A stretch of 14,972 bases of DNA from a virus (Duplodnaviria; Heunggongvirae; Uroviricota; Caudoviricetes), in IMG/VR virus record IMGVR_UViG_3300029656_000143, positions 1 to 14,972 of that record; one strand, written 5' to 3'. Made by a program: the position numbers and the translations under genes. A model generated the notes under the pieces. It worked only from the letters and a program-made list of their open reading frames with translations, searched no databases and had not been told where the DNA came from. The first letter of the stretch is position 1; the number at the start of each line of letters is the position of its first letter. Shown here in pieces: positions 1 through 14,753 of the stretch.

Positions 1-336
1 ATGGCTTCTAAAAAATTTTACTCAGATGATGACATCCAGCTGGCAAAAGCTGCTTTATCAGAATTGCCGGACCTCACCGCTCAACGGAAAACATTGCGTG
101 ATTTTCTTGATGCCATTCGTGATGACATTATTGTCCTGGTAAGGACAAAGGGTTATACACTGGCAGATGTTCGTGACACGCTCAAAAATGCAGGGTATGA
201 AGTAGGAGAGAAGGCACTTCGTGACATTATTCGGGAAGCAGAATCGAAAAAACCATCCCGCCGTTCTTCCTCTAAAACAGCACCTAAAAAGACAGATTCA
301 GGCAGGAAAGATGGCATCGATATGAACAACAATTAA
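1..336 (+). CDS. hypothetical protein, 111 aa, with a basic Ser/Lys/Arg-rich C-terminal tail; possibly 5'-clipped by the window edge
   Basis: ORF begins with ATG at window position 1 and ends with TAA at 334-336. No family recognised. Composition suggests a small nucleic-acid-binding protein (inference only). Confidence 0.4.
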   Translation: MASKKFYSDDDIQLAKAALSELPDLTAQRKTLRDFLDAIRDDIIVLVRTKGYTLADVRDTLKNAGYEVGEKALRDIIREAESKKPSRRSSSKTAPKKTDSGRKDGIDMNNN

Positions 337-351
337 TGTGACAATGTCACA
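337..351. repeat. perfect 15-bp palindrome TGTGACAATGTCACA
   Basis: Read directly: 7-bp arms TGTGACA/TGTCACA around a central A, starting 1 nt after the stop of ORF 1-336, between convergent ORFs. Confidence 0.6.
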
Positions 352-421
352 TCGTGTTCTGAGATTATGATGATTACAGAAAAAAAAGCCCCGGCATAAA
401 TACCAGAGCTTTTCTGTTTAA

Positions 422-1270
422 TCAGACTCGTGGCGGCAATACACCAGGATAATGCCGTGCAATAATATCATTCAGTTTTTCAACAAGGTCAGAACGCTTA
501 AAGACAATGTGTACGGTCCCTTTCTGGTAGCCACGCACCGTAAAATATTCCCCTTCTAACAACTTACCGACATTGTCGCCGTTCCCGAGAAATTCACCAT
601 ACTGCGCCCCGATGCTGTTCCTGAAGTCAGGAACGTTGCGCCCGTCCAGCAGATAAAAAGGACGTACCAGGTCATCCAGTACCTCCCGTCCGCTGCAGTC
701 CAGCGTCACACGCCCGTTACTCCAGCGGTACAGCATGTTTTCAATAATGATTCTCTTGCCCAGACGGCAGGGATTATTGGTTCTGTAATCCCATGACAAT
801 TTCCGGTAGACATCAATCAGTCCCTGTTCAAATGTCTGCATCTTGCTGGCATTCAGATGGCGGAATGTTGCCAGCACATTGTCCAGGGTGATTTCAGGAC
901 AGGTGTCGCTCATCAGCTGGCTATTCCACTCATCACACTGGCATGAACTCATGAAGGTGTACATGCCCGTATCTGTCATCAGGCGGTCCCAGATTTTCCG
1001 GTCGGCAAGACGGGTGATATTCCTTTTCGCTTCTTCCGGTTTATCTATGCGACGAACGGAATCAGTCACGCAGTCTTCAAACCCGTAAAGAAAAATATCA
1101 CCTGACGCATCGAGCAGAATCTTGCGCGCTGTCGCCAGGCATTCCATCGCCTGCATGAACAGTGCAATACCTTCGTTACGCTGCGCGATGATGCGGTCGA
1201 TAGCCACAGACGGAATAACATCTGTCGTGCCGGCAGTATTCAGGTCAGCAGTGGGTAAAGTCTGATTCAT
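422..1270 (-). CDS. orphan hypothetical protein, 282 aa (283 aa if the GTG at 1273 is used); family not recognised
   Basis: Long uninterrupted minus-strand ORF. ATG (plus-strand CAT at 1268-1270) is preceded on the coding strand by GAGGAGA 8 nt upstream. Globular-looking composition. Possible resemblance to DUF4942-type island proteins is a weak recollection only. Confidence 0.65.
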   Translation of the reverse strand: MNQTLPTADLNTAGTTDVIPSVAIDRIIAQRNEGIALFMQAMECLATARKILLDASGDIFLYGFEDCVTDSVRRIDKPEEAKRNITRLADRKIWDRLMTDTGMYTFMSSCQCDEWNSQLMSDTCPEITLDNVLATFRHLNASKMQTFEQGLIDVYRKLSWDYRTNNPCRLGKRIIIENMLYRWSNGRVTLDCSGREVLDDLVRPFYLLDGRNVPDFRNSIGAQYGEFLGNGDNVGKLLEGEYFTVRGYQKGTVHIVFKRSDLVEKLNDIIARHYPGVLPPRV

Positions 1271-1745
1271 CACATTGTCTCCTCATCGTCACGACTGCCG
1301 GGTCAGCCAGGTCATTTCCCGGAGGAGCGAAGCTCCTTCTGCCGTCCGGGTCTTCGGGGATTTCCCCGCAGTGGACCTTTCCGACGGGGGACGCTCACCA
1401 CGTCACGGGGCAGTTGTCCGGGGGCAGACGCAAAAGTTTTTGACGCCTGCGGCAAAAAGTTTTGTGGCTGGTACATCTCTCCCCTGGACGACTGAAACGG
1501 GATGTGGTCGTGTATGTACCCCCGGAAAGTTCGTCTGCGGAGAACGGGCCGCAGTGCGGCGGCAGACAGGCAGAGACAGCTGCGCCATCAGGCGCAGTGG
1601 CCTTACACACCGTAAGGTGTGCAGGGAGCGCCGCATCCGGCGCGACTGAAGAAAAACGACGGCACAACAATGGCATGTGGTGGTCACTGGCACACCACTC
1701 CCGCACAGGTGAAAACAGAGAAAACCGCACGACATTTACAACCAA

Positions 1746-1835
1746 AAAAAGTGAAATTTCTTCACTTTTTCACACTTATTTATCGCGTTGATTTGGTGAT
1801 TATGATGATAAAATAAAGTGAAGTTTTTTCACTTT
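1746..1835 (+). promoter_or_regulatory. promoter region with two operator-like palindromes upstream of the HTH gene
   Basis: Palindrome 1 is AAAAAGTGAA-ATTTC-TTCACTTTTT at 1746-1770. Palindrome 2 is AAAGTGAA-GTTTT-TTCACTTT at 1815-1835. Between them are a -35-like TTGATT (1788-1793) and a -10-like TAAAAT (1809-1814). The SD AAAGGTG lies at 1839-1845 before the ATG at 1850. Hexamer assignment is approximate. Confidence 0.5.
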
Positions 1836-1849
1836 TTCAAAGGTGTTTT

Positions 1850-2101
1850 ATGACCGGCTGGGAACTGCGAATCTGGCGAAAAAGCATGCTCTGGTCACGC
1901 GAAAAAGCGGCCAGAGAATTTGGCGTGACGCAGAGAACATGGCACGCCTGGGAAAATGCGGAACAGGTGGATGTCACCGTCTGGAGGACCACCCAGGCAC
2001 TTTCAGTCCGTGACCTGCTGCCTCACATGCAGGGGATGCGTAAGGCAGATATCATCAGGCGACTGGAAAATGAACTGGGGGAAACGGCAGAGGATGTGTG
2101 A
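1850..2101 (+). CDS. small XRE-type helix-turn-helix DNA-binding protein, 83 aa (putative autoregulated regulator)
   Basis: The segment WSREKAAREFGVTQRTWHAWE matches the HTH pattern of Cro/CI-type regulators. Good SD, ATG start, TGA at 2099-2101. Operator-like palindromes lie immediately upstream. Confidence 0.65.
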   Translation: MTGWELRIWRKSMLWSREKAAREFGVTQRTWHAWENAEQVDVTVWRTTQALSVRDLLPHMQGMRKADIIRRLENELGETAEDV

Positions 2102-2131
2102 GCGTGATTCACAGCCTGGCTGAATGCCAGG

Positions 2132-2302
2132 CTACTGCTCATCAGGAAACAGCTTTTTCAGTTCTTCACCGGAAAGTCCGGTCGCCTCCTGAATCCGTTC
2201 CGGCGTCCAGCCCATATCCCGCAGCCGGCAGGCTATTTCCCGCGCCACTTCAAGAGCACCTTTTTCAAAACCTTTCTGTATAAGACGTTCTGCAATCGTC
2301 AT
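2132..2302 (-). CDS. possible small protein resembling the C-terminal repeat domain of Rpn/YhgA-family proteins (56 aa from the internal ATG; the ORF track extends it to 2398, into the IS end)
   Basis: MTIAERLIQKGFEKGALEVAREIACRLRDMGWTPERIQEATGLSGEELKKLF has the G..G....A......G...E.I...TGLS.EEL pattern I associate with Rpn/YhgA C-termini. AGGAG lies 13 nt upstream of the ATG. Could be a gene fragment or spurious. Confidence 0.3.
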   Translation of the reverse strand: MTIAERLIQKGFEKGALEVAREIACRLRDMGWTPERIQEATGLSGEELKKLFPDEQ

Positions 2303-2325
2303 GCTGTTTGCTCTGCTCCTGCTGG

Positions 2326-2352
2326 CAAAAAAGCCCGGGATTTTGCCGGGCT
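2326..2352 (-). terminator. intrinsic terminator-like hairpin (minus-strand sense)
   Basis: AGCCCGG (2332-2338) and CCGGGCT (2346-2352) form a 7-bp stem with a 7-nt loop. On the minus strand it is followed by TTTTTT (complement of the A-run 2326-2331). Confidence 0.5.
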
Positions 2353-2448
2353 TTGCGGTTCTCTGCGTATTACCGTGAAGGAGATCGGTGAGTAACATCG
2401 ATGGAGATCGGTTCGTGTCACTTTCACAGAACCGTTTTTAAATTACCT

Positions 2449-3198
2449 TCACTGATCTCCTTCGGTCAACGGAGATTGTATTTTCCGCATTGATTCTCCT
2501 TTAAGTTCGATCTTGATACTGCCATGAACCAGTCGATCTAGGATGGCATCCGCATGTGTGGAGTCTCCGATCATTTTGTACCAGTTTTCCACCGGCAACT
2601 GGCTCACTACGATGATTGAGCCTCGTTGGTACATCAGATCCACTATTTCCAGCAGGTCGCTACGCTGTTCTGATGAGAGAGGTTCCAGCCCCCAGTCATC
2701 CAGAAGCAGCAGATCGCTATTATTCAGCCTGGTCAAAAGTTTGCTGTATCTTCCATCAGCATGCCCCTGATAGCACTGTTCCATCAGCGCTTTAAGGCGA
2801 TAATAGTAGACCTTGTATCCCTGTCGGCAGGCATTATGACCAAGTGCACATGCCAGGAACGTTTTACCGCTGCCGGTGGCCCCGGTCAGTAAAATATTTT
2901 GTTTCAGGGTTAACCAGTTTCCCTGACTGAGTGAACGGATGAGGGCCCTGTCCAGCCCTCTATTGTTACGATAATCCAGCTTTGATAACTCAGCATTAAG
3001 TCTGAACCGTGCATGTTTGATCAGACGCTCTGCCTTCCTGTTTTCACGGCAGGTTAGTTCTTCTGCTGTCAGTAATGACAGGCGTTCTTCGAAGCCCAGC
3101 TCCTGGTATGTGCCCGGCTGAGCAAGTTGCTTTTTAAGCGCATCACGGAAGCCGGTGAGTTTAAGTGCGGTCAGTTGTTCGTAAAGATGATTCATCAT
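2449..3198 (-). CDS. istB: IS21-family transposition helper ATPase IstB, 249 aa
   Basis: Walker A GATGSGKT and Walker B LLLLDDWG in a DnaC-like AAA+ layout; lies immediately downstream of istA on the same strand. Confidence 0.9.
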   Translation of the reverse strand: MMNHLYEQLTALKLTGFRDALKKQLAQPGTYQELGFEERLSLLTAEELTCRENRKAERLIKHARFRLNAELSKLDYRNNRGLDRALIRSLSQGNWLTLKQNILLTGATGSGKTFLACALGHNACRQGYKVYYYRLKALMEQCYQGHADGRYSKLLTRLNNSDLLLLDDWGLEPLSSEQRSDLLEIVDLMYQRGSIIVVSQLPVENWYKMIGDSTHADAILDRLVHGSIKIELKGESMRKIQSPLTEGDQ

Positions 3199-3209
3199 TG
3201 GATCCCGTA

Positions 3210-4751
3210 TCAGTGGTAATACTCACTGCCGCGTACGTTTTCGTGTTCCATCGTGGATAACAGATCTGGTTTTGGATCCTGAACAGGTTGTTTATCCAGA
3301 CCTTTTTCCAGGATCGATTTAATACCTGACAGACGCCATACCTTTGTTTTCAGAGCTCTTGCACATGCTGCATTAAGTCTGGCTTTACTGTATTTTTTAT
3401 GAAGGTTCAGGAGTCCAAGGCAGAAGCGATAGCTTTGTTCCGGATGTGGACGAGAGTTCAGTATATGAAGCACATAACTATGAGTTTCACTGCCTATGTG
3501 CCCCGCCCATTCCAGAAGACGCTCTGGCGTCCAGGTGGCATGCTGTCGATGAGCTTCAGGCATGTGCTCGTTGCGGGTACTGTAGCCATAAGTACGCTTG
3601 CGCGGGTGCACAGCAACCTCCTGCCCCTGATTGAAGAGTCTTACCAGTTCTCCGGAGATCCATGCTTCCAGTTGCTGGCCTAACAGCGAACATGGAACCG
3701 AGTAGTAATGTTTGTCGATTTCCACGTGGTAATCGGCATGGACTCTGACTTTCTTCACCAGGGTGTAACTGTAACTGGCTTCAGGAAGAGGCTTCAGTGC
3801 GGGTTTATCAAGCTGGATGAAGAGTTCTGCACGTGAATAACCCAACTTCTGCATTATTTTGTTATTCAGTCTTTCCAGCAACTCCCGAATGCGCTGATTA
3901 AGCGATGCAAGGCTGTAGAAGATCTCATGCCTGATTCGGGCCATGATCCAGCGTTCAACAACCTGAACGCCAACTTCAGCTTTGGCTTTATCTTTCGGTT
4001 TACGTGGCCGCGCAGGCAAAACTGCGACATTATAATGCTCAAGCATCTGCTGGTAGGTAGGGTTAACGTCAGGATCATACTTACATGCCCTGGATGTGGC
4101 GCTTTTCAGATTGTCCGGAACAACAAGTTCAGGAACGCCACCCAACCACTGGAAGCAGCGAACATGACTCATCACCCAGTCTTCAAGCTGCTGAGACCAG
4201 GTGGCCTCTGCCCATGTGTAACTTGATGCCCCGAGAACAGCTACGATGACCTGAGCAGTTCTTATTTCTCCGGTCTCAGGGTCGGTAACGCCAACGGTAG
4301 GTCCACAGTAATCAACGAAAAGTTTTTCGCCAGCTTTATGTACCTGACGCATTGATGGTGAAGTGGTTTTGAGCCATTCACGGTACATCCGGCAGTAATG
4401 GTTATAGCTGTAAAAACCGCCTGGATTACGCTCACAGTATTCTTCCCAGAGTAGCTGCAGCGTCACGCATTTATTACGCAGTTCCCGGTGTACTGTAGCC
4501 CAGTCAGGCAGAGAGTGCTTCTTCATCTTAACCTGGGTCTGAAGGAACGCATGTTTTAGTTTTGTATCATCCCATCCTGTAGGTAAGGGCCACTGCTTTA
4601 TGCCAAGTTGAGCCGCCCGATTAGCATATCTGGATACAACGGAAGGGGAGATTGCAAGACTACGACCAATTTGTCGATGGCTGAGTCCAACACCGTATTT
4701 AAGCCTAAGAATTTCTTTAAGTTTTCTCATAGAAATTGGAACTGTTGGCAT
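3210..4751 (-). CDS. istA: IS21-family transposase IstA, 513 aa
   Basis: N-terminal HTH (LSHRQIGRSLAISPSVVSRY), central DDE-type integrase core, IS21-type C-terminal region; 11-bp gap to istB. Confidence 0.9.
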   Translation of the reverse strand: MPTVPISMRKLKEILRLKYGVGLSHRQIGRSLAISPSVVSRYANRAAQLGIKQWPLPTGWDDTKLKHAFLQTQVKMKKHSLPDWATVHRELRNKCVTLQLLWEEYCERNPGGFYSYNHYCRMYREWLKTTSPSMRQVHKAGEKLFVDYCGPTVGVTDPETGEIRTAQVIVAVLGASSYTWAEATWSQQLEDWVMSHVRCFQWLGGVPELVVPDNLKSATSRACKYDPDVNPTYQQMLEHYNVAVLPARPRKPKDKAKAEVGVQVVERWIMARIRHEIFYSLASLNQRIRELLERLNNKIMQKLGYSRAELFIQLDKPALKPLPEASYSYTLVKKVRVHADYHVEIDKHYYSVPCSLLGQQLEAWISGELVRLFNQGQEVAVHPRKRTYGYSTRNEHMPEAHRQHATWTPERLLEWAGHIGSETHSYVLHILNSRPHPEQSYRFCLGLLNLHKKYSKARLNAACARALKTKVWRLSGIKSILEKGLDKQPVQDPKPDLLSTMEHENVRGSEYYH

Positions 4752-4932
4752 AGGTATCCTTTACCGGAATGGCAAAAGATACAGATCAACACACCTGTGA
4801 AGTTCCAATAACATTGATGGAGATCACTGAATAACAAAATGAGTCAAAAGTGATCTCCATCGATGTTATTCAGCGATCTGTTCAAATGTTATTACCCGAT
4901 CTCGATGGAAGTTATTGAGTGATCTCCTTTCA

Positions 4933-6694
4933 TGAAAATACGCAAACGCTAATTGCCGTGGCGAACATGGCCGAAAGTTATAAACCCGCTCTTGCCGAAG
5001 GCTCAGGGCGTTCGCAGACCTGTCGCATGGTCATCATCGTCAGCAGTGTGGCCTCAGTGGAGCTGACCATTGACACCACAACGGTGATGGCGACGCAGGA
5101 TTACGTTGATGACAAAATTGCAGAGCACGAACAGTCACGACGTCACCCGGACGCCTCGCTGACCGCAAAAGGTTTTACTCAGTTAAGCAGTGCGACCAAC
5201 AGCATATCTGAAACACTGGCCGCAACGCCGAAAGCGGTTAAGGCCGCATATGACCTTGCTAACGGGAAATATACCGCACAGGACGCTACCACAGCGCGAA
5301 AAGGTCTTGTCCAGCTAAGCAGTGCGACCAACAGCACGTCTGAAACACTGGCCGCAACACCAAAAGCCGTTAAGACGGTAATGGATGAAACGAACAAGAA
5401 AGCGCCATTAAACAGCCCTGCACTGACCGGAACGCCAACGACGCCAACTGCGCGACAGGGAACGAATAATACTCAGATCGCAAACACGGCTTTCGTTATG
5501 GCCGCGATTGCCGCCCTTGTAGACTCGTCGCCTGACGCACTGAATACGCTGAACGAGCTGGCAGCGGCGCTGGGCAACGACCCGAATTTTGCTACCACTA
5601 TGACTAATGCGCTTGCGGGTAAGCAACCGAAAGATGCTACCCTGACGGCGCTGGCGGGGCTTGCTACTGCGGCAGACAGGTTTCCGTATTTTACGGGGAA
5701 TGATGTTGCCAGTCTGGCAACTCTGACAAAAGTCGGGCGGGATATTCTTGCGAAATCGACCGTTTCCGCCGTTATCGAATATCTCGGTTTACAGGAAACG
5801 GTAAACCGAGCCGGGAACGCCGTGCAAAAAAATGGCGATACCTTGTCCGGTGGACTTACTTTTGAAAACGACTCAATCCTTGCCTGGATTCGAAATACTG
5901 ACTGGGCGAAGATTGGATTTAAAAATGATGCCGATGGTGACACTGATTCATATATGTGGTTTGAAACAGGTGACAACGGCAATGAATACTTCAAATGGAG
6001 AAGTCGCCAGAGCACCACAACAAAAGACCTGATGAATCTTAAATGGGATGCTCTGTATGTTCTTGTTAAAGCCCTTTTCAGCAGTGAAGTAAAAATATCT
6101 ACAGTCAATGCACTGAGGATATTTAATTCATCTTTTGGTGCTATTTTTCGCCGTTCTGAAGAAAACCTGTATATCATCCCTACACGAGAAAATGAGGGTG
6201 AAAATGGAGATATTGGGCCATTAAGGCCATTCGGCATCAACTTAAGAACAGGAGTTGTGTCTGTTGGTAATGGTGCCAGGATTGATGGCGGGCTGGCACT
6301 TGGCACGAATAACGCGTTGGGTGGGAACTCTATTGTTCTTGGTGATAACGACACCGGATTTAAACAAAATGGCGATGGTAATCTGGATGTTTATGCTAAT
6401 AACGTCCATGTTATGCGCTTTGTTTCCGGAAGCATTCAAAGTAATAAGACCATAAATATTACGGGGCGTGTTAATCCCTCGGATTACGGTAACTTTGATT
6501 CCCGCTATGTGAGAGATATCAGACTTGGCACACGTGTTGTCCAGACCATGCAGAAAGGGGTGATGTATGAGAAAGCAGGGCACGTAATTACCGGGCTTGG
6601 TATTGTCGGTGAAGTCGATGGTGATGACCCCGCAGTATTCAGGCCAATACAAAAATACATCAATGGCACATGGTATAACGTCGCACAGGTGTAA
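4933..6694 (+). pseudogene. H: 5'-truncated P2-type tail fibre gene H; the first ~80-100 codons are missing, replaced by the IS end
   Basis: Product from TLIAVANMAESYKPALAEGSGR onward, ending GTWYNVAQV, matches my recollection of the P2 gpH tail fibre. The ORF-track reading frame (4919-6694) begins with a GTG inside the IS terminus. No upstream H segment is present left of the IS. Confidence 0.85.
5180..5374 (+). repeat. tandem 63-bp repeat units (period 132 bp) inside H
   Basis: 5180-5242 and 5312-5374 are near-identical (CAGTTAAGCAGTGCGACCAACAGCA... / CAGCTAAGCAGTGCGACCAACAGCA...), encoding QLSSATNS(I/T)SETLAATPKAVK twice. Confidence 0.7.
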
Positions 6695-6697
6695 TTT

Positions 6698-7225
6698 ATG
6701 CAGCATTTAAAAAATATTACTGCGGGTAATCCAAAAACTGTTGCCCAATATCAACTGACAAAAAATTTTGATGTTATCTGGTTATGGTCCGAAGAGGGAA
6801 AAAACTGGTATGAGGAAGTAAGTAATTTTCAGGAAGACACGATAAAGATTGTTTACGACGAGAATAATATAATTGTCGGCATCACCAGAGATGCTTCAAC
6901 GCTTAACCCTGAAGGTTTCAGCGTTGTCGAGGTTCCTGATATTACCTCCAACCGACGTGCTGATGACTCAGGTAAATGGATGTTTAAGGATGGTGCCGTG
7001 ATTAAGCGGATTTATACGGCAGATGAACAGGAGCAACAGGCAGAATCACAAAAGGCAGCTTTACTTTCCGAAGCTGAATCCGTGATTTTTCCGCTGGAAC
7101 GCGCTGTCAGGCTGAATATGGCGACGGATGAGGAACGCAGCCGACTGGAAGCATGGGAACGCTACAGCGTTCTGGTCAGTCGTGTGGATCCTGCAAATCC
7201 CGAATGGCCGGAAATGCCGCAATAA
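6698..7225 (+). CDS. G: tail fibre assembly protein (P2 gpG-type), 175 aa
   Basis: Starts 4 nt after the H stop with SD AGGTG. Sequence (MQHLKNI...[12 protein letters not shown]) matches my recollection of P2-type G/Tfa proteins and the conserved H-G order. Confidence 0.85.
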
Positions 7226-7446
7226 GTTGTATGATCTCTGGTGTGAGCTTACATATCTATAGCACAGAGTAAAGCCTAATCTGACAGACCGCTCTGTGTC
7301 TGGAGTAGATTTTAGTAAAGCATTATTTTATTAGTGCAAATTCTAATCAATACATTTTATGTATATGATATCCTGCGGACTTTAATGACTTGGTTTAGGC
7401 TAACCAGATAACACTGAAGGAATATTTTTGATAATTAAGGTGCGGT

Positions 7447-8040
7447 ATGTTTACTAAGCGACGATTAAAAAATATTAACTGGGAGGCAAGTTCAGTGATT
7501 CTTGCTATGGTTCTCTTTGTTGGAAATATATTTTACACAAATCACCGTGATGATATAAGCATGGAGGCTGAGAGGGACAGTATCAGAACAATGTTTGCAT
7601 ATGAAATCGCTAATAACCATCGCGCTCTCACTTTTCTTGATAAAACGAGACATATTGGCTTTGACGAAAATTCGGAGCATTTTGTTGGCGAGCCTTTTGC
7701 CATTAATGTCAAATCATTAGGAGGGCCTCGCTTACAGGTTGCATTAAACCAGACTGATAAAGTGTTTAAAGCCTACTTCAGTGAATTAAGTAAACTTGAT
7801 AAAGAGGATGTTACTCTTCTTATGGACTATTACAATGAGCAAAGCATCCTGCTGGAGTGTGTAAAATCTACGTTACAGAAGATGAAAAGCAATAATGATA
7901 TTAAAGTTGATATTGATGGTTACTTATTAGAAGAACACTTCATGAATGAGTTTAATCTTTCTAATATTTTGCTTAAACGCTATAGCCATTTGTTGTCACA
8001 ACACCTCAAAAAACCTGAAACAAAAGATTTACATAATTGA
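7447..8040 (+). CDS. AT-rich 197-aa membrane-anchored protein at the Z/fun lysogenic-conversion locus; candidate superinfection-exclusion / anti-phage protein
   Basis: Position between G and FI is where P2 carries Z/fun. SD AAGGTG 5 nt upstream. Visibly AT-rich codon usage compared with flanking tail genes. N-terminal KRRLK followed by the hydrophobic stretch SSVILAMVLFVGNIFY (signal-anchor-like). Flanked by 221-bp and 329-bp noncoding regions and a strong terminator. Confidence 0.7.
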   Translation: MFTKRRLKNINWEASSVILAMVLFVGNIFYTNHRDDISMEAERDSIRTMFAYEIANNHRALTFLDKTRHIGFDENSEHFVGEPFAINVKSLGGPRLQVALNQTDKVFKAYFSELSKLDKEDVTLLMDYYNEQSILLECVKSTLQKMKSNNDIKVDIDGYLLEEHFMNEFNLSNILLKRYSHLLSQHLKKPETKDLHN

Positions 8041-8247
8041 TGATCTGCTAATGGTTATTCATGGGATAACTATGTTTTATATGTAATCCAACTCAGATGA
8101 ATTATTGATTCTGGATAATAACCGCAGAGCGGCATATACCCTGACAGGCAAATGTCCGCTTCTTGATCAAAGCAGACTGTCAGATTTGATAACTTTTGGG
8201 TTATGTAAATTGTCAGTCGGAAAATGAGTGTGTACAAATCAGGACAG

Positions 8248-8273
8248 GCGGGCGAATTGCCCGCTTTTTCTTT
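8248..8273 (+). terminator. rho-independent terminator downstream of the Z/fun-locus gene
   Basis: GCGGGC (8248-8253), loop GAATT, GCCCGC (8259-8264), then TTTTTCTTT (8265-8273). Confidence 0.65.
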
Positions 8274-8369
8274 ATCTGTTGTTTCATCCACTGACCAGCC
8301 AGGTCAAATAGCGTCTCATGCACTACCCAACGGAAAATAGTTGCACCCATTAACCACGGAGTTAAACGG

Positions 8370-9560
8370 ATGAGTGACTATCATCACGGCGTGCAGGTGC
8401 TGGAAATTAACGACGGCACCCGCGTCATTTCCACCGTATCCACGGCCATTGTCGGCATGGTCTGCACGGCCAGCGATGCGGATGCGGAAACCTTCCCCCT
8501 CAATAAACCGGTGCTGATTACCAATGTGCAGAGCGCAATTGCAAAGGCCGGTAAAAAAGGCACGCTGGCGGCGTCGTTACAGGCCATCGCAGACCAGTCA
8601 AAACCGGTCACCGTTGTTGTGCGCGTGGAAGACGGCACCGGCGACGACGAAGAAACGAAACTCGCGCAGACCGTTTCCAATATCATCGGCACCACCGACG
8701 AAAATGGTCAGTACACCGGACTGAAAGCCCTGCTGGCGGCGGAGTCGGTAACCGGTGTTAAACCGCGTATTCTCGGTGTGCCGGGACTGGACACCAAAGA
8801 GGTGGCTGTTGCACTGGCATCAGTCTGTCAGAAGCTGCGCGCTTTCGGGTATATCAGCGCATGGGACTGTAAAACCATTTCCGAGGTGAAAGCCTACCGT
8901 CAGAATTTCAGCCAGCGTGAGCTGATGGTCATCTGGCCGGATTTCCTCGCATGGGATACGGTCAGCAGTACCACCGCCACCGCGTATGCCACCGCCCGTG
9001 CGCTGGGTCTGCGCGCTAAAATCGACCAGGAGCAGGGCTGGCATAAAACGCTGTCCAATGTCGGGGTGAACGGTGTTACCGGCATCAGCGCATCCGTCTT
9101 CTGGGATTTGCAGGAGTCCGGCACCGATGCTGACCTGCTTAACGAGTCTGGTGTCACAACGCTGATTCGCCGCGACGGTTTCCGCTTCTGGGGTAACCGT
9201 ACCTGCTCTGATGACCCGCTGTTCCTCTTTGAAAACTACACCCGCACCGCGCAGGTGCTGGCCGACACGATGGCTGAGGCGCACATGTGGGCGGTGGACA
9301 AGCCCATCACCGCAACGCTGATTCGCGACATCGTTGACGGCATTAATGCCAAATTCCGTGAGCTGAAAACAAACGGCTATATCGTGGATGCGACCTGCTG
9401 GTTCAGCGAAGAATCCAACGATGCGGAAACCCTCAAGGCCGGAAAACTGTATATCGACTACGACTATACCCCGGTGCCTCCTCTTGAAAACCTGACCCTG
9501 CGCCAGCGTATTACCGATAAATACCTGGCAAATCTGGTCACCTCGGTTAACAGCAATTAA
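8370..9560 (+). CDS. FI: contractile tail sheath protein (P2 gpFI), 396 aa
   Basis: MSDYHHGVQVLEINDGTRVISTV... matches my recollection of P2 FI. SD GGAG upstream. Length and FI-FII-E-T-U-D order as in P2. Confidence 0.92.
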   Translation: MSDYHHGVQVLEINDGTRVISTVSTAIVGMVCTASDADAETFPLNKPVLITNVQSAIAKAGKKGTLAASLQAIADQSKPVTVVVRVEDGTGDDEETKLAQTVSNIIGTTDENGQYTGLKALLAAESVTGVKPRILGVPGLDTKEVAVALASVCQKLRAFGYISAWDCKTISEVKAYRQNFSQRELMVIWPDFLAWDTVSSTTATAYATARALGLRAKIDQEQGWHKTLSNVGVNGVTGISASVFWDLQESGTDADLLNESGVTTLIRRDGFRFWGNRTCSDDPLFLFENYTRTAQVLADTMAEAHMWAVDKPITATLIRDIVDGINAKFRELKTNGYIVDATCWFSEESNDAETLKAGKLYIDYDYTPVPPLENLTLRQRITDKYLANLVTSVNSN

Positions 9561-9572
9561 GGAGCCTGACCG

Positions 9573-10091
9573 ATGGCAATGCCGCGCAAACTCAAGTTAA
9601 TGAACGTCTTTCTGAACGGCTACAGCTATCAGGGCGTTGCAAAGTCCGTCACGCTGCCAAAACTGACCCGTAAGCTCGAAAACTATCGCGGTGCGGGGAT
9701 GAACGGCAGCGCACCGGTAGACCTCGGCCTTGATGACGATGCGCTGTCAATGGAGTGGTCGCTCGGGGGCTTCCCGGATTCGGTTATCTGGGAGCTTTAC
9801 GCCGCAACCGGCGTGGATGCCGTGCCGATTCGTTTTGCTGGCTCTTACCAGCGCGACGATACCGGCGAAACGGTGGCCGTCGAAGTAGTCATGCGTGGAC
9901 GTCAGAAAGAAATCGACACCGGCGAGGGGAAACAGGGAGAAGATACCGAGTCGAAAATCTCCGTGGTCTGCACCTATTTCCGGCTGACGATGGACGGTAA
10001 GGAGCTGGTCGAAATTGACACCATCAACATGATTGAGAAGGTGAACGGCGTCGACCGGCTGGAGCAACACCGCCGCAATATCGGCCTGTGA
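9573..10091 (+). CDS. FII: tail tube protein (P2 gpFII), 172 aa
   Basis: SD AAGGAG overlaps the FI stop. Sequence and length as recalled for P2 FII; position directly after the sheath gene. Confidence 0.92.
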   Translation: MAMPRKLKLMNVFLNGYSYQGVAKSVTLPKLTRKLENYRGAGMNGSAPVDLGLDDDALSMEWSLGGFPDSVIWELYAATGVDAVPIRFAGSYQRDDTGETVAVEVVMRGRQKEIDTGEGKQGEDTESKISVVCTYFRLTMDGKELVEIDTINMIEKVNGVDRLEQHRRNIGL

Positions 10092-10098
10092 TTTTCAT

Positions 10099-10119
10099 CC
10101 GGTCAGCCAGGCTGACCGG
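10099..10119. repeat. perfect 21-bp palindrome CCGGTCAGCC-A-GGCTGACCGG between FII and E
   Basis: Read directly; 10-bp arms; lies 8 nt after the FII stop. No T-run follows. Confidence 0.55.
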
Positions 10120-10147
10120 TTAACCCTGATTCAGAAGTGAGAAAACC

Positions 10148-10423
10148 ATGAACAAAGAAAATGTGATTACCCTGGACAATCCGGTCAAGCGTGGTGAGCA
10201 GGTCATCGAACAGGTCACGCTAATGAAACCCAATGCCGGGACGCTGCGCGGTGTCAGTCTGGCTGCGGTCGCGAACTCCGAAGTCGATGCACTGATTAAA
10301 GTGCTGCCGCGCATGACGGCACCGATGCTGACCGAACAGGAAGTTGCCGCGCTGGAACTGCCTGACCTTGTGGCGCTGGCCGGTAAGGTGGTCGGTTTTT
10401 TGTCGCCGAACTCGGTGCAGTAA
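10148..10423 (+). CDS. E: tail assembly chaperone (P2 gpE), 91 aa
   Basis: Small ORF between the tube and tape measure genes, with the slippery site near its 3' end; matches the P2 gene order. Confidence 0.85.
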   Translation: MNKENVITLDNPVKRGEQVIEQVTLMKPNAGTLRGVSLAAVANSEVDALIKVLPRMTAPMLTEQEVAALELPDLVALAGKVVGFLSPNSVQ

Positions 10424-10575
10424 CGTTCCCGAAAAATCTCTCGGTCGATGACCTGATGGCGGATGTGGCAGTGATATTTCACTGGCCGCCATCAGAACTG
10501 TATCCCATGAGTCTGACCGAACTCATCACATGGCGCGAAAAGGCGCTCCGGCGAAGCGGAAACACGAATGAGTAA
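10148..10575 (+). CDS. E+E': tail assembly chaperone E+E', 142 aa, made by programmed -1 ribosomal frameshift at T TTT TTG (10396-10402)
   Basis: Translating by hand, a -1 shift at the heptamer continues VAELGAVTFPKNLSVDDLMADVAVIFHWPPSELYPMSLTELITWREKALRRSGNTNE to the TAA at 10573-10575, overlapping the T start. 85 + 57 aa = 142 aa, the recalled size of P2 E+E'. Confidence 0.75.
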
Positions 10576-13015
10576 CAATGTAAAATTACAGGTATTGCTC
10601 AGGGCTGTTGACCAGGCATCCCGCCCGTTTAAATCCATCCGTACAGCGAGCAAGTCGCTGTCGGGGGATATCAGGGAAACACAAAAATCACTGCGCGAGC
10701 TGAACGGTCACGCATCCCGTATTGAGGGATTTCGCAAGACCAGCGCACAGCTCGCCGTGACTGGTCAGGAACTGAAAAAAGCCAGACAGGAAGCCGCAGC
10801 TCTGGCTGTCCAGTTTAAAAATACTGAACGACCGACAAATGCACAGGCAAAGGCAATGGAAGCCGCGCGTAAAAATGCGTCTGAGTTACAGGCGAAATAT
10901 AACAGCCTGAGATTGTCGGTACAGCGCCAGCGTCAGGAATTGAGTCAGGCGGGTATTAATACCCGTAATCTGGCGCATGATGAACGAGGGCTGAAAAACC
11001 GTATCAGTGAAACCACCGCACAGCTTAACCGTCAGCGCGACGCGCTGGCGCGTGTCAGTGCGCAACAGGCAAAACTTAACGCAGTCAAACAGCGTTATCA
11101 GGCAGGCAAGGAACTGGCCGGAAATATGGCCTCGGTGGGCGCTGCCGGTGTGGGGATTGCGGCGGCGGGAACGATGGCCGGAGTTAAGCTGCTGATGCCC
11201 GGTTATGAGTTTGCGCAGAAAAACTCAGAATTGCAGGCTGTGCTCGGTGTGGCAAAAGACTCCGCCGAAATGGCCGCGCTCCGCAAACAGGCGCGCCAGC
11301 TCGGCGACAACACCGCCGCCTCGGCGGATGATGCGGCCGGTGCACAGATTATCATTGCGAAAGCGGGTGGAGATGCTGCGGCTATTCAGGCGGCAACGCC
11401 GGTCACGCTGAATATGGCGCTGGCGAACCGCCGCACGATGGAAGAAAACGCCGCCCTGCTGATGGGGATGAAATCCGCCTTTCAGCTTTCAAACGATAAG
11501 GTCGCTCATATCGGGGATGTTCTCTCCATGACGATGAACAAAACCGCCGCCGATTTTGACGGCATGAGCGATGCGCTGACCTATGCCGCACCTGTGGCAA
11601 AAAATGCCGGTGTCAGCATTGAAGAAACCGCCGCAATGGTCGGGGCGCTGCATGATGCAAAAATTACAGGCTCAATGGCGGGGACGGGAAGCCGTGCCGT
11701 GTTAAGTCGCCTGCAGGCACCAACGGGAAAAGCATGGGATGCACTCAAAGAGCTTGGCGTGAAAACCTCAGACAGCAAGGGAAACACCCGGCCAATATTT
11801 ACCATTCTGAAAGAAATGCAGGCCAGTTTTGAGAAAAACCGGCTCGGTACTGCCCAGCAGGCCGAATACATGAAAACCATTTTCGGGGAGGAAGCCAGCT
11901 CAGCCGCCGCCGTGCTGATGACTGCCGCCTCAACCGGAAAGCTGGACAAACTGACTGCTGCGTTTAAAGCCTCAGACGGGAAGACCGCAGAGCTGGTAAA
12001 TATTATGCAGGACAATCTCGGCGGTGACTTTAAGGAGTTTCAGTCCGCTTATGAGGCGGTGGGGACTGACCTGTTTGACCAGCAGGAAGGCGCACTGCGT
12101 AAGCTCACGCAGACGGCCACAAAGTATGTGTTAAAACTCGACGGCTGGATCCAGAAAAACAAATCACTGGCGTCAACCATCGGCATCATTGCCGGTGGTG
12201 CACTGGCACTGACTGGTGTCATCGGTGCCATTGGCCTCGTAGCCTGGCCGGTTATCACCGGCATCAATGCCATTATCGCGGCAGCAGGCGCAATGGGAGC
12301 AATCTTCACGACGGTTGGCAGTGCTGTTATGACGGCCATCGGGGCGATTAGCTGGCCGGTTGTGGCCGTGGTGGCCGCCATTGTCGCCGGGGCGTTGCTT
12401 ATCCGTAAATACTGGGAGCCTGTCAGCGCATTCTTTGGCGGTGTGGTTGAAGGGCTGAAAGCGGCATTTGCGCCAGTGGGGGAACTGTTCACGCCACTTA
12501 AGCCGGTGTTTGACTGGCTGGGTGAAAAGTTACAGGCCGCGTGGCAGTGGTTTAAAAACCTGATTGCCCCGGTCAAAGCCACACAGGACACCCTGAACCG
12601 TTGCCGTGATACGGGTGTCATGTTCGGGCAGGCACTGGCTGACGCGCTGATGCTGCCGCTTAATGCGTTCAACAAACTGCGCAGCGGCATTGACTGGGTA
12701 CTGGAAAAGCTCGGGGTCATCAACAAAGAGTCAGACACACTTGACCAGACCGCCGCCAGAACTCATGCCGCCACGTATGGCACCGGTGGTTATATTCCGG
12801 CGACCAGCTCTTATGCAGGCTATCAGGCTTATCAGCCGGTCACGGCACCGGCTGGCCGCTCTTATGTGGACCAGAGTAAAAACGAATATCACATCAGCCT
12901 GACGGGTGGTACTGCGCCGGGGACACAGCTTGACCGCCAGTTACAGGATGCGCTCGAAAAATACGAGCGGGATAAACGTGCGCGCGCCCGTGCCAGCATG
13001 ATGCATGACGGTTAA
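10568..13015 (+). CDS. T: tail tape measure protein (P2 gpT), 815 aa
   Basis: Coiled-coil-like Q/A/R/K-rich N-terminal third and a long Gly/Ala/Ile-rich hydrophobic segment (about aa 530-620), typical of tape measure proteins. Length and position as in P2. Confidence 0.9.
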   Translation: MSNNVKLQVLLRAVDQASRPFKSIRTASKSLSGDIRETQKSLRELNGHASRIEGFRKTSAQLAVTGQELKKARQEAAALAVQFKNTERPTNAQAKAMEAARKNASELQAKYNSLRLSVQRQRQELSQAGINTRNLAHDERGLKNRISETTAQLNRQRDALARVSAQQAKLNAVKQRYQAGKELAGNMASVGAAGVGIAAAGTMAGVKLLMPGYEFAQKNSELQAVLGVAKDSAEMAALRKQARQLGDNTAASADDAAGAQIIIAKAGGDAAAIQAATPVTLNMALANRRTMEENAALLMGMKSAFQLSNDKVAHIGDVLSMTMNKTAADFDGMSDALTYAAPVAKNAGVSIEETAAMVGALHDAKITGSMAGTGSRAVLSRLQAPTGKAWDALKELGVKTSDSKGNTRPIFTILKEMQASFEKNRLGTAQQAEYMKTIFGEEASSAAAVLMTAASTGKLDKLTAAFKASDGKTAELVNIMQDNLGGDFKEFQSAYEAVGTDLFDQQEGALRKLTQTATKYVLKLDGWIQKNKSLASTIGIIAGGALALTGVIGAIGLVAWPVITGINAIIAAAGAMGAIFTTVGSAVMTAIGAISWPVVAVVAAIVAGALLIRKYWEPVSAFFGGVVEGLKAAFAPVGELFTPLKPVFDWLGEKLQAAWQWFKNLIAPVKATQDTLNRCRDTGVMFGQALADALMLPLNAFNKLRSGIDWVLEKLGVINKESDTLDQTAARTHAATYGTGGYIPATSSYAGYQAYQPVTAPAGRSYVDQSKNEYHISLTGGTAPGTQLDRQLQDALEKYERDKRARARASMMHDG

Positions 13016-13029
13016 GGAGGTGACGAAAA

Positions 13030-13509
13030 ATGATGCTCGCGTTAGGTATGTTTGTTTTTATGCGCCAGACGCTGCCACACCAGACCATGCAGCGTGAATC
13101 AGATTATCGCTGGCCGTCAAATTCCCGTATCGGTAAACGGGACGCCTTTCAGTTTCTCGGTGTGGGTGAGGAAAACATCACGCTGGCCGGTGTGCTTTAT
13201 CCCGAACTGACCGGCGGAAAGCTGACGATGACCACGCTCAGACTGATGGCAGAGGAAGGCCGGGCGTGGCCGTTGCTGGATGGCACCGGCATGATTTACG
13301 GCATGTATGTCATCAGCAGGGTGAGTGAAACAGGGAGTATTTTCTTTGCAGACGGCACACCCCGGAAAATTGATTTTACGCTGTCGCTCACCCGCGTTGA
13401 TGAATCACTGGCCGCGCTTTATGGCGATATCGGTAAACAGGCGGAGTCGCTCATCGGTAAGGCTGGCAGTATGGCGACTAAATTCACGGGTATGACGGGG
13501 GCGGGATAA
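13030..13509 (+). CDS. U: tail protein U (P2 gpU), 159 aa
   Basis: SD AGGAGG (13015-13020) overlaps the T stop. Length and order as in P2. Stop overlaps the D start (TAATG). Confidence 0.85.
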   Translation: MMLALGMFVFMRQTLPHQTMQRESDYRWPSNSRIGKRDAFQFLGVGEENITLAGVLYPELTGGKLTMTTLRLMAEEGRAWPLLDGTGMIYGMYVISRVSETGSIFFADGTPRKIDFTLSLTRVDESLAALYGDIGKQAESLIGKAGSMATKFTGMTGAG

Positions 13510-14672
13510 TGCTGGATGCACTGACATTTGATGCAGGCAGTACGCTGACGCCGGATTACATGCTGATGCTCGACAGCAGGGATATTACCGGCAATATCAG
13601 CGACCGTCTGATGAGCATGACCCTGACGGATAACCGGGGCTTTGAGGCTGACCAGCTTGATATTGAACTGAGCGATGCCGACGGGCAGGTCGGGCTACCG
13701 ATTCGTGGCGCTGTCCTGACGGTGTATATCGGCTGGAAAGGTTTTGCCCTGGTATGCAAAGGGAAATTTACCGTTGATGAGGTTGAACACCGGGGCGCGC
13801 CGGATGTGGTTACCATCCGCGCCCGGAGTGCAGATTTTCGCGGGACGCTCAATTCCCGCCGTGAAGGCTCCTGGCATGACACCACGCTCGGTGCGATTGT
13901 TGAGGTGATAGCCTCCCGTAACAGGCTGGAAGCCAGTGTCGCGCCGTCACTGGCCGGAATTAAAATCCCGCACATCGACCAGTCGCAGGAGTCTGATGCA
14001 AAATTCCTGACCCGCCTTGCTGAACGCAACGGCGGTGAGGTGTCGGTAAAAATGGGAAAACTGTTGTTTCTCAAAGCGGGGCAGGGAGTGACGGCCAGCG
14101 GTAAAAAAATCCCGCAGATTACCATAACCCGCAGCGACGGCGACCGTCATCATTTTGCGATTGCTGACCGTGGAGCCTACACCGGCGTAACGGCAAAGTG
14201 GTTACACACCAAAGACCCGAAGCCGCAAAAGCAGAAGGTAAAACTGAAACGCAAAAAGAAAGAGAAACACCTGCGCGCACTGGAGCACCCCAAAGCGAAA
14301 CCGGTCACGCAGAAGAAAGCGCCAAAAGTACCGGAAGCGCGCGAAGGTGAATACATGGTCGGTGAGGCTGACAACGTTTTTGCCCTGACCACGGTTTATG
14401 CCACGAAAGCACAGGCCATGCGCGCCGCTCAGGCGAAGTGGGACAAACTGCAACGGGGCGTCGCGGAGTTTTCCATCAGCCTGGCTACCGGTCGGGCAGA
14501 TATTTACACGGAAACACCGGTTAAAGTGTCAGGCTTTAAGCGCGTCATAGACGAGCAGGACTGGACAATCACTAAGGTGACACATTTTCTGAATAATAGC
14601 GGCTTCACGACGTCCTTAGAGCTTGAGGTCAGGCTTTCTGATGTGGAGTACGAAACAGAAGATGATGGGTGA
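13509..14672 (+). CDS. D: tail protein D (P2 gpD), 387 aa
   Basis: ATG overlaps the U stop by 1 nt. Length and position as in P2. Contains a Lys-rich tract at about 14210-14345. Confidence 0.88.
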   Translation: MLDALTFDAGSTLTPDYMLMLDSRDITGNISDRLMSMTLTDNRGFEADQLDIELSDADGQVGLPIRGAVLTVYIGWKGFALVCKGKFTVDEVEHRGAPDVVTIRARSADFRGTLNSRREGSWHDTTLGAIVEVIASRNRLEASVAPSLAGIKIPHIDQSQESDAKFLTRLAERNGGEVSVKMGKLLFLKAGQGVTASGKKIPQITITRSDGDRHHFAIADRGAYTGVTAKWLHTKDPKPQKQKVKLKRKKKEKHLRALEHPKAKPVTQKKAPKVPEAREGEYMVGEADNVFALTTVYATKAQAMRAAQAKWDKLQRGVAEFSISLATGRADIYTETPVKVSGFKRVIDEQDWTITKVTHFLNNSGFTTSLELEVRLSDVEYETEDDG

Positions 14673-14753
14673 TGTTTTTATTTTATCTATTTGTTTTATA
14701 AGGATAAATTAACTAAAATGGCACCATCAACAAAACCGGAAGAGGTGCTCGCG

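Follow-up and report, generated by a model that had tools for sequence, protein, structure and literature searches.

A DUF4942 gene behind a predicted single-strand promoter element in an IncI1 leading-region fragment, a candidate establishment or anti-defence gene

A DUF4942 gene at the oriT-proximal end of a plasmid leading region

We analyzed a window of 14,972 nucleotides (positions 1 to 14,972 of IMG/VR virus record IMGVR_UViG_3300029656_000143) and found that the gene at 422..1273 (− strand) encodes a DUF4942 protein and lies in a fragment of an IncI1-type conjugative-plasmid leading region. The original prediction had proposed a defence or conflict gene. The leading-region position behind a predicted single-strand promoter points instead to an establishment or anti-defence role in a new host, and with moderate confidence we propose that the product is a transiently, zygotically expressed accessory protein of this kind, probably directed at DNA. 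The gene itself is not new: it is a well-known, already described and functionally uncharacterised plasmid gene, and the published literature, in which four papers use the term, contains no experiment assigning a function to any DUF4942 protein.

The gene had been predicted to be well formed, with a strong Shine-Dalgarno sequence and a full-length reading frame. Indeed, the ORF is uninterrupted, is preceded by GAGGAG (1279..1284, read from 1284 to 1279 on the − strand), and scores 175 bits (E 1.8e-51) against Pfam PF13708 (DUF4942), whose gathering score is 25 bits, with residues 91-276 covering positions 5-189 of the 190 in the model, so it is no chance ORF. This match also bears out a tentative mention of DUF4942-type proteins in the same prediction, which had otherwise called the gene an orphan of no recognizable family; the family in fact comprises 1,997 clusters at 50% identity, and the gene occurs in thousands of IncI1 and related conjugative plasmids. 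RefSeq annotation agrees with the assignment. The gene belongs to the IncI1 ygfB/ydiA family and corresponds to pMS7163B_00760 and to Hp22 of pESBL-EA11 (WP_001077053.1; O3K_25947), with which the window protein shares 275 of 282 residues (~97.5%). A 256-aa leading-region ORF at another locus (L001, 24759-25529) was rejected as a DUF4942 paralogue (BLASTP E 0.3).

A GTG at 1273 (283 aa) directly precedes an ATG at 1270 (282 aa), with the Shine-Dalgarno sequence 5 nt before the former and 8 nt before the latter, a spacing compatible with both. RefSeq starts near-identical genes at the ATG, and the ATG is the more likely start codon. A hairpin resembling an intrinsic terminator, with a U8 run (379..410, − strand), begins 12 nt past the stop codon; folding of the RNA at 337-430 (− strand) gave a G+C-rich stem of 10 bp and, after it, UUUUUUUU (z = -4.5). 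The gene looks monocistronic.

Window positions 1-2363 represent the oriT-proximal end of the leading region, in the order yggA, DUF4942, ssi/Frpo-type element, HTH regulator, with 97.8-99.6% nucleotide identity to IncI1 plasmids (pESBL, 97.9% over 1-2274; pAMSC6, 99.6% over 1-2363). When positions 1-2450, which take in ~87 nt of ISEc12, were used as a query, 2,771 plasmid records were matched, 1,905 of them covering at least 80% of the query. Gene order in IncI1 plasmids is nikB-nikA-oriT-yggA-DUF4942-HTH-Rpn...ardA-psiAB-ssb. The yggA gene (pESBL Hp23; 1..336, + strand) is annotated in IncI1 plasmids, where it is convergent with the DUF4942 gene and separates that gene from oriT. It had been suspected of being clipped by the window edge; the window begins exactly at its ATG, and the same complete 111-aa protein is found in IncI1 plasmids. 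A Pfam search with this ORF returned no family. PGAP names the protein 'MobC molybdopterin...', which is a mislabel. In a neighbourhood survey of 80 loci, all from Enterobacterales, the YggA cluster was paired with NikA wherever it occurred.

In pESBL, YggA occupies 69882-70217 and oriT 70354-70436 (Table 2 of PMC4288162). The corresponding oriT is expected ~140-220 nt to the left of the window, and in the plasmid arrangement both oriT and nikA lie just beyond that edge. On the other side the fragment is interrupted by ISEc12. Plasmid alignments end at 2363, in the remainder of a small leading-region ORF resembling pESBL Hp20 (2132..2363, − strand); an NCBIfam search of this region gave a weak Rpn C-terminal match, and the downstream Rpn-family gene of the plasmids is missing. 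The window resembles the pESBL-EA11 Hp22 and pMS7163B_00760 loci in its neighbours (yggA and HTH), in orientation and in the upstream ssi element (99%), but, unlike the pESBL locus, its backbone is broken at 2363/2364 by ISEc12 followed by P2-like prophage genes, and oriT and nikA fall outside it. The insertion sequence and prophage, which had been taken as the relevant neighbourhood, are secondary; the native setting of the gene is the plasmid leading region beside oriT and nikA.

A predicted single-strand promoter element upstream of the DUF4942 gene

The DUF4942 gene is the first gene past oriT that is oriented with the transferred single strand as template: because it points toward oriT, its template is the incoming T-strand. 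Directly upstream, sequence identity and fold define a 329-nt element of the ssi/Frpo class-1 single-strand DNA promoter type (1318..1646, + strand), in which the + strand, here the T-strand, folds into a long, imperfectly paired hairpin (ssDNA fold, MFE -131 kcal/mol, z = -6.7). IncI1 plasmids each carry three dispersed copies of ~330 nt, the other two being upstream of a 435-nt ORF (81-82% identical) and of ssb (79-80%). Against the three pESBL ssi copies the window element is 99.1% (68571-68899), 81.6% and 78.9% identical, and it is 74% identical over 118 nt to the Frpo1 region upstream of ORF95/ORF273 in the F plasmid. A consensus hairpin built from the three IncI1 copies and F contains 108 pairs, 25 of which carry compensatory changes on both sides, a count that with four sequences is indicative and not statistical. 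Frpo-like elements were also present upstream of DUF4942 homologues in at least nine further plasmid loci. A -35/-10 consensus scan found no site of 9/12 or better within 1318-1646, and manual inspection of both arms yielded weak candidates only. Rfam assigned no family within 1-2500 and gave two sub-threshold chance matches.

According to Wen et al., 2025 (PMC12672017), RNA-seq and 5' RACE showed transcription from pESBL ssi1-3, with start sites mapped in transconjugants, and at the level of operons the strongest induction there was that of the leading operons downstream of ssi1-3. Given its 99% identity to the pESBL element, the window element would be transcribed from ssDNA in the recipient in the same manner.

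On the far side of the element is an 83-aa Xre-type HTH regulator (pESBL Hp21; 1850..2101, + strand), assigned through phrog_6962 and plasmid annotation; its Pfam scores are below the gathering cut-offs (HTH_31, 23.5 versus 27 bits; HTH_3, 16.8 versus 23 bits). In the leading-region survey of Samuel et al., 2024, it is family #22 ('aca6-like'), at position 2 from oriT and encoded on the other strand from the genes for which the T-strand is the template (Suppl. Table 1, PMC11541004). Two perfect palindromes, AAAGTGAA-N5-TTCACTTT, at 1748-1768 and 1815-1835 (two matches, none expected by chance) are probably the operators of this adjacent regulator, and a sigma-70-like site on the − strand (1832 to 1805) overlaps the second of them.

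DUF4942 genes recur next to oriT and in chromosomal islands

Samuel et al., 2024 list DUF4942 as leading-region family #24, with 2,171 members, a median position of 1 from oriT, T-strand orientation and FDR p = 0 (Suppl. Table 1, PMC11541004). In our 80 loci the plasmid-type homologues are separated from oriT by 0-4 genes and oriented towards it, both in NikA-type and in SLT/TraM-type (F-like) backbones. A clade at 35-42% identity occupies chromosomal islands with no oriT nearby, where DUF4942 is the last gene of the operon DUF932 - ArdB/KlcA - RadC - DUF987 - CbeA - CbtA - DUF5983 - DUF4942; this agrees with the predicted occurrence of relatives on enterobacterial integrative islands. Neither a housekeeping family nor core-genome synteny, named beforehand as the contrary outcomes, was found for the window gene, which is a plasmid leading-region gene instead.

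The F plasmid offers a parallel arrangement: ORF273 (DUF932), behind the homologous Frpo-type ssDNA promoter Frpo1, is likewise a functionally uncharacterised, oriT-proximal leading gene, ~270-280 aa in product length, that points at oriT. The two proteins nevertheless belong to different Pfam families and have no detectable homology (hhalign probability 0.1%). DUF932 and DUF4942 co-occur in chromosomal islands.

The window protein lacks the methyltransferase domain of its fused relatives

The DUF4942 product is inferred to be a soluble two-domain protein, with a helical N-terminal part and a C-terminal alpha/beta domain. Neither a single-protein nor a profile search of PDB sequences matched its DUF4942 part, and its fold likewise had no PDB match, structural scores being at noise level. 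Walker, NPPY and GxGxG motifs were all absent, as the original prediction of no recognizable catalytic motif had held. Comparison by hhalign of DUF4942 with DUF932 (F ORF273), ArdB, RadC, LPD29/30, yggA and the small neighbouring ORFs gave probabilities of at most 1.2%.

Proteins of the stand-alone type far outnumber the others (of the best 150 cluster representatives, most have 260-295 aa), and conservation with an unchanged set of invariant residues extends from 97% identity to as little as 30%. Longer relatives exist. In some bacteria, an N-terminal DUF4942 part is fused to a gamma-class methyltransferase (MTase) bearing motif I and NPPF, an architecture also seen in phage genes of 519-543 aa and in phrog_6263. 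The N-terminal halves of Marinomonas phage P12026 gp32, Pseudomonas phage phiPSA1 gp22 and phrog_6263 align with window residues ~3-280 and share the invariant residues, and S159, D200, H254 and N267 are invariant in fused and stand-alone forms alike. Unlike the window protein, the phage and bacterial fusions carry a C-terminal TaqI-like N6-adenine MTase domain, and profile matches to PDB MTases fall only in fusion columns 284-422. DUF4942 is the sole non-catalytic part of TaqI-like N6-adenine DNA methyltransferases in phages and some bacteria, and for this reason it most likely recognizes or binds either DNA or a partner in DNA modification or restriction.

We also considered that the MTase domain might be encoded separately. 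Searches with four fused MTase domains (phmmer and tblastn) gave a single match across the 80 loci, whereas pESBL, pAMSC6 and F gave no match. The split-gene hypothesis was rejected, as neither pESBL nor F, nor 79 of the 80 loci, has an adjacent or plasmid-borne partner MTase of the fused type. A DNA-mimic hypothesis was likewise rejected, because the pI of the window protein is near neutral (5.7; family median 6.8); strong DNA binding similarly finds no support in the pI.

Comparison with known anti-restriction proteins and transposon screens

The window gene has several features in common with the genes for ArdA, ArdB/KlcA and the ssDNA methyltransferase M.EcoGIX, namely compartment, strand, a predicted zygotic expression of the ssDNA-promoter type and dispensability in permissive matings. 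At the protein level there is no sequence or fold similarity to any of the three, and the window protein is not acidic like ArdA; Pfam gave no ArdA or ArdB/KlcA match, and hhalign against the ArdB cluster reached a probability of 0.2%.

Two saturating transposon screens bear on function. Hp22 of pESBL was classed as non-essential, with a probability of 1.00, for both maintenance and transfer (PMC4288162). In TraDIS of TOP10-to-J53 matings, where the recipient is EcoKI+, insertions in pMS7163B_00760, which is near-identical to the window gene, had a log2FC of +1.0, as against -3.1 for ardA and -3.4 for ardB (PMC10286972). The screens show that neither maintenance nor transfer into K-12, the EcoKI+ recipient included, requires the gene; against such a recipient ardA and ardB are needed, and the DUF4942 gene is not. 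Because this recipient depleted ardA and ardB insertions but not DUF4942 insertions, a non-redundant role against type I restriction is unlikely. The gene may be a neutral passenger.

Proposed role and alternative explanations

The proposed establishment or anti-defence role would work as follows. On entry, the folded ssi hairpin would provide a promoter for host RNA polymerase, which would transcribe the DUF4942 gene from ssDNA within minutes (zygotic induction), as inferred from published work on near-identical plasmids. Expression would drop once the complementary strand is made, and the divergent HTH protein, bound to the palindromes at 1748-1835, may then silence any double-strand promoter, by analogy with Acr/Aca circuits. 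The product would help the plasmid to become established where the recipient is hostile or non-isogenic, and would be irrelevant to replication or DNA transfer as such. Without methylating, the stand-alone plasmid form would either shield DNA or interfere with some defence that is not EcoKI.

More tentatively, DUF4942 could be a new class of early zygotic effectors of plasmids, phages and islands: a DNA-recognition or catalytic module of orphan adenine MTases whose stand-alone form neutralizes, without methylation, a barrier beyond those met by ArdA, ArdB and PsiB. Candidate barriers would be non-type-I restriction, a methylation-dependent system or another nucleic-acid-sensing defence. If true, this would explain why DUF4942 is the very first gene expressed on entry, both by IncI1 plasmids and by many F-like plasmids from other genera.

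Among the alternatives, a new kind of enzyme, for example a nuclease or hydrolase attacking a host factor or nucleic acid on entry through its invariant Ser, Asp, His and Asn, is unlikely: the noise-level structural scores speak against it, and the window protein matched no nuclease family. Slightly less probable still is a gene that benefits the host through anti-phage defence, abortive infection or exclusion of rival elements. The accessory DNA location, the link of chromosomal relatives to a type IV toxin-antitoxin pair and the presence of the family in prophages fit such a gene, but PADLOC, the defence-system check proposed with the original prediction, gave no credible match (a single 15.7-bit partial hit to '2TM effector', over 36 residues and with no partner genes). 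Moreover, transcription from ssDNA is transient and ends on plasmid establishment, which suits an entry function and not a standing defence, and the co-enriched neighbours (ArdA, ArdB/KlcA, PsiB) are anti-defence genes.

We regard as improbable a conjugative DNA-processing factor acting at or near oriT in the recipient, in recircularization, priming or complementary-strand synthesis. An oriT-side position kept across two unrelated relaxosome types (NikA and TraM/SLT) and expression from the first ssDNA promoter to enter would suit this role; against it, near-identical genes are dispensable for transfer in both screens, the large sister clade sits at the end of the CbtA/CbeA operon in chromosomal islands away from any oriT, and the phage homologues are MTase fusions. 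Decay of an MTase gene into a functionless remnant would account for two screens without a phenotype and for the existence of related full-length fusions, but it is very improbable for a form that is the commonest of the family, keeps its invariant residues across such divergence, retains a Shine-Dalgarno sequence, a terminator and a dedicated promoter, and holds a fixed position in thousands of plasmids. Last, protection of the incoming plasmid by methylation, as implied by database names ('methyltransferase', 'restriction methylase'), by UniProt and Foldseek cluster names in Suppl. Table 1 of Samuel et al., by the annotation of phage homologues as DNA methyltransferases and by phrog_6263, is scarcely credible and already essentially refuted: the names stem from longer fusions of which DUF4942 is merely the N-terminal half, the window protein has no MTase Pfam match, no motif I and no (D/N/S)PP(Y/F/W), PDB matches are confined to the fused domain, and the AF2 model, read by secondary-structure elements and not by coordinates, shows no Rossmann-type strand-helix alternation.

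Survival of a plasmid in a new host depends in part on the genes that the incoming strand expresses first, and DUF4942 is the median first ORF past oriT in more than 2,000 conjugative elements. Among resistance plasmids, those of IncI1 are major carriers, of ESBL genes and of others. The target of DUF4942, once found, would fill a gap in what is mapped of how plasmids establish themselves and counter defences, and could reveal a recipient barrier new to conjugation.

ISEc12 joins the plasmid fragment to a prophage

A search of public plasmids and E. coli genomes for the exact plasmid/ISEc12 junction found none, and the junction is in no database record. The plasmid-ISEc12-prophage junction is the sole unusual feature of the window, which adds nothing new on the DUF4942 gene itself; cut off from the rest of the plasmid by ISEc12, the gene is probably a mere passenger here. 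The regulator gene, insertion sequence and prophage remnant noted earlier as neighbours are all present: beyond the HTH gene (1850-2101), ISEc12 (IS21 family; 2364..4944, − strand; istB 2449-3198, istA 3210-4751) connects, in the window as assembled, the plasmid fragment with a tail-fibre gene of a P2-like prophage, and P2-like tail genes follow from 4945.

Identity of the DUF4942 gene

The ORF at 422..1273 (− strand) encodes 283 aa if translation starts at GTG 1273; an ATG follows directly at 1270 and is the RefSeq start for near-identical plasmid genes, giving 282 aa. A Shine-Dalgarno sequence, GAGGAG (1284→1279, − strand), stands ahead of the gene, and a G+C-rich hairpin followed by a U8 run (379–410) begins 12 nt past its stop codon. 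Together these features mark a well-formed, monocistronic gene, in agreement with the original prediction of a real ORF with a strong Shine-Dalgarno. Its description there as an orphan of no recognizable family is contradicted by a match to Pfam DUF4942 (175 bits, E 1.8e-51), which backs the tentative comparison with DUF4942-type proteins offered at the same time. NCBIfam contains no model for the product, PADLOC gave only a 15.7-bit partial match, and four related families were found in PHROGs, including a "DNA methyltransferase" profile of 548 positions, covered at positions 26–286 only. We conclude that the gene is real but ordinary: a catalogued and extremely common plasmid gene, not an orphan. 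The significance is modest for the window itself and greater for the DUF4942 family, to which no paper in the literature has assigned a function.

Leading-region context

Positions 1–2363 of the window are 97.8–99.6% identical to IncI1 plasmids. A query of 1–2450, which includes ∼87 nt of the IS21-family element ISEc12, matched 2,771 plasmid records, with at least 80% of the query covered in 1,905; the plasmids are mostly conjugative, from Escherichia, Salmonella, Klebsiella, and Shigella hosts. The gene order in pAMSC6 and pESBL-EA11 (pESBL) is nikB, nikA, oriT, yggA (111 aa), DUF4942, HTH, small ORF, Rpn and, further along, ardA, psiA/psiB, parB-like, ssb, klcA, and DNA methylase, which is a classical leading region. 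The DUF4942 gene, ardA, psiB, and ssb all face oriT, so the transferred strand (the window + strand) is the template for the DUF4942 gene. The ORF at 1–336 (+ strand), suspected earlier of being clipped, is the complete 111-aa yggA (pESBL Hp23), the window beginning exactly at its ATG; yggA was non-essential in pESBL Tn-seq (PMC4288162). The YggA protein has a lysine/serine-rich tail and is often mislabeled [quoted passage not shown] by PGAP; in IncI-type loci its gene is always divergently paired with nikA across oriT (cluster c11 with c12).

In a survey of 80 Enterobacterales loci, homologues with 48–58% identity were plasmid-borne, 0–4 genes from oriT and facing it, the neighbours being yggA-NikA in some (IncI-like) and an SLT transglycosylase plus TraM in others (F-like). 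Homologues with 35–42% identity were chromosomal and last in the operon DUF932 - ArdB/KlcA - RadC - DUF987 - CbeA - CbtA - (DUF5983) - DUF4942, a CP4-type island module, as the earlier mention of integrative islands had it. At the equivalent position the F plasmid itself carries ORF273 (DUF932), a protein without homology to DUF4942 (hhalign probability, 0.1%). On F-like plasmids of Serratia, Rahnella, and Buttiauxella (loci L006, L012, and L014–L016; cluster c31), the space separating DUF4942 from the SLT-TraM oriT region holds the gene of another entry-associated protein, which has 289 aa and LPD30 and LPD29 ("large polyvalent protein") domains.

Putative upstream promoter element and candidate operators

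The ∼575 nt of non-coding DNA ahead of the DUF4942 gene include a 329-nt ssi/Frpo class-1 element (1318–1646). Two further copies (∼80% identity) are present in each IncI1 plasmid, upstream of a 435-nt ORF and of ssb. BLAST found exactly three copies in pESBL (68571–68899, 65171–65496, and 58827–59152), the first of which abuts the DUF4942 gene and matches the window copy at 99.1% identity. In its central part the element shares 74% identity with F plasmid DNA that precedes ORF95/ORF273, at the Frpo1 position. A profile of the ssi element located Frpo-like elements in at least nine additional plasmid loci, 0.1–1.7 kb upstream. Folding of the + strand as single-stranded DNA gave an extended hairpin with imperfect pairing (−131 kcal/mol, z = −6.7). 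When the F sequence was aligned with the three IncI1 copies, the consensus hairpin had 108 pairs, of which 25 carry compensatory changes, a result that is indicative rather than statistical because it comes from four sequences. No convincing −35/−10 hexamers could be assigned in the element.

According to Wen et al. (2025, PMC12672017), the pESBL genes whose expression rises by as much as ∼500-fold in transconjugants are organized in six operons, every one of them preceded by a hairpin-forming ssDNA promoter; ssi1-3, three of the six promoters, are the strongest, "class 1" and Frpo-like, with starts mapped by 5′ RACE. Since pESBL has three copies of the element, one ahead of Hp22 (the DUF4942 gene), we infer that this gene is among the zygotically induced operons. 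The element would drive its transcription as a single-strand promoter, so the protein would be made transiently in the new recipient.

The HTH gene (1850–2101, + strand) is divergent from the DUF4942 gene and corresponds to family #22 of Samuel et al. (PMC11541004), "aca6-like," at position 2 on the opposite strand. Two perfect palindromes, AAAGTGAA-N5-TTCACTTT, lie 67 bp apart at 1748–1768 and 1815–1835, between the element and the HTH gene and just upstream of the latter (two found versus zero expected by chance); the one at 1815–1835 overlaps a sigma-70-like site on the − strand. The palindromes look like candidate operators for an Aca-like HTH repressor of the early gene; bound to them, the HTH protein could shut off transcription from double-stranded DNA in the direction of the DUF4942 gene.

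Protein family and methyltransferase fusions

The DUF4942 family comprises 1,997 clusters at 50% identity (E ≤ 1e-3), most commonly stand-alone proteins of 260–295 aa. Across 36 sequences (24% mean column identity), S21, W94, P125, G150, L158, S159, D200, H254, N267, and L278 are invariant. The window protein lacks SAM motif I and an NPPY-type motif, consistent with the earlier failure to recognize a catalytic motif, and its pI is 5.7 (family median, 6.8); on these grounds it is not a methyltransferase, nor is it an acidic mimic like ArdA. In a minority of relatives (P0255, P0278, and P0281) and many phage genes, such as Marinomonas phage P12026 gp32 (519 aa) and Pseudomonas phage phiPSA1 gp22 (543 aa), the whole DUF4942 region forms the N-terminal half of a 460–560-aa protein whose C-terminal half is a TaqI-like gamma-class N6-adenine methyltransferase catalytic domain (motif I, then NPPF). 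As the fusion enzymes have no other candidate DNA-recognition domain, DUF4942 is probably their DNA-directed part; this architecture, which suggests a DNA-directed domain, is the sole lead to molecular activity. A homologue of the fusion-type methyltransferase domain was absent from pESBL, the F leading region, and 79 of the 80 surveyed loci, and the stand-alone protein therefore has no split partner of this type.

Transposon screens and proposed role

Published screens indicate that the gene is dispensable in permissive matings. Hp22 (68947–69795) was non-essential (probability 1.00) for pESBL maintenance and transfer to K-12 (Yamaichi et al., 2015, Table 2, PMC4288162). The same gene in pMS7163B, 00760 (c69857..70705; 98.1% identity between pMS7163B and the window region), had a log2FC of +1.02 in TraDIS of TOP10-to-J53 transfer, while insertions in ardA (−3.1), ardB (−3.4), and ssb (−2.5) were depleted (PMC10286972). 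The J53 recipient is EcoKI+, and this screen argues against a non-redundant anti-type-I role.

The identity and regulation of the DUF4942 gene are well supported: in the leading region of an IncI1 plasmid it is the first gene to have the T-strand as template, with the ssi/Frpo class-1 element as its probable single-strand promoter. Alternatives for what it does include a new enzyme, a DNA-processing helper, a defence gene, and a fossil. A conditional establishment or anti-defence accessory fits better than a transfer function or host defence gene, because the gene is dispensable in permissive matings, stays in pole position across two relaxase backgrounds, and keeps company with anti-restriction and SOS-inhibition genes.

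In the same pMS7163B screen, insertions in 00780–00800 (small ORF, Rpn-family gene, next ORF) raised conjugation ∼8-fold (log2FC +2.8 to +3.2; PMC10286972 S1 Table), a possible sign that this segment of the leading region holds transfer or establishment in check. Its equivalent lies just past 2132 and is missing or truncated in the window.

ISEc12 junctions and prophage

Plasmid homology ends at 2363, and ISEc12 (2364–4944) bridges the IncI1 leading-region DNA and a P2-like prophage tail module that occupies the window from 4945 on, the 4944/4945 joint being with the 3′ part of a tail-fibre gene. On E. coli chromosomes this prophage has ISEc12 within its tail-fibre gene, and some IncI1 plasmids carry ISEc12 ∼1.2 kb deeper into the leading region. 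The plasmid/IS junction (2363/2364) had no match in 72,556 plasmids and 5,426 complete E. coli genomes. The window thus represents either a cointegrate or rearrangement mediated by the IS, in which a plasmid integrated or rearranged via ISEc12 copies, or a chimeric assembly joined across the IS. The DUF4942 gene is here severed from the remainder of the plasmid, most likely as passenger of an IS-mediated event.

Elsewhere (E. coli genome matches H86–H92), ISEc12 copies abut psiA, parB-like, yeeS (RadC), and DUF5983 genes, which suggests an insertion preference for leading-region/CP4-island modules or joint spread with them. Within the prophage, a 197-aa ORF (7447–8040, + strand) with a hydrophobic N-terminal segment had no match in Pfam and PADLOC searches and so is more truly unassigned than the DUF4942 gene. 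It lies between a P2-type tail-fibre assembly gene (6698–7225) and the tail sheath gene (8370–9560), at a variable cargo spot occupied in related prophages by a Shedu nuclease or another hypothetical gene.
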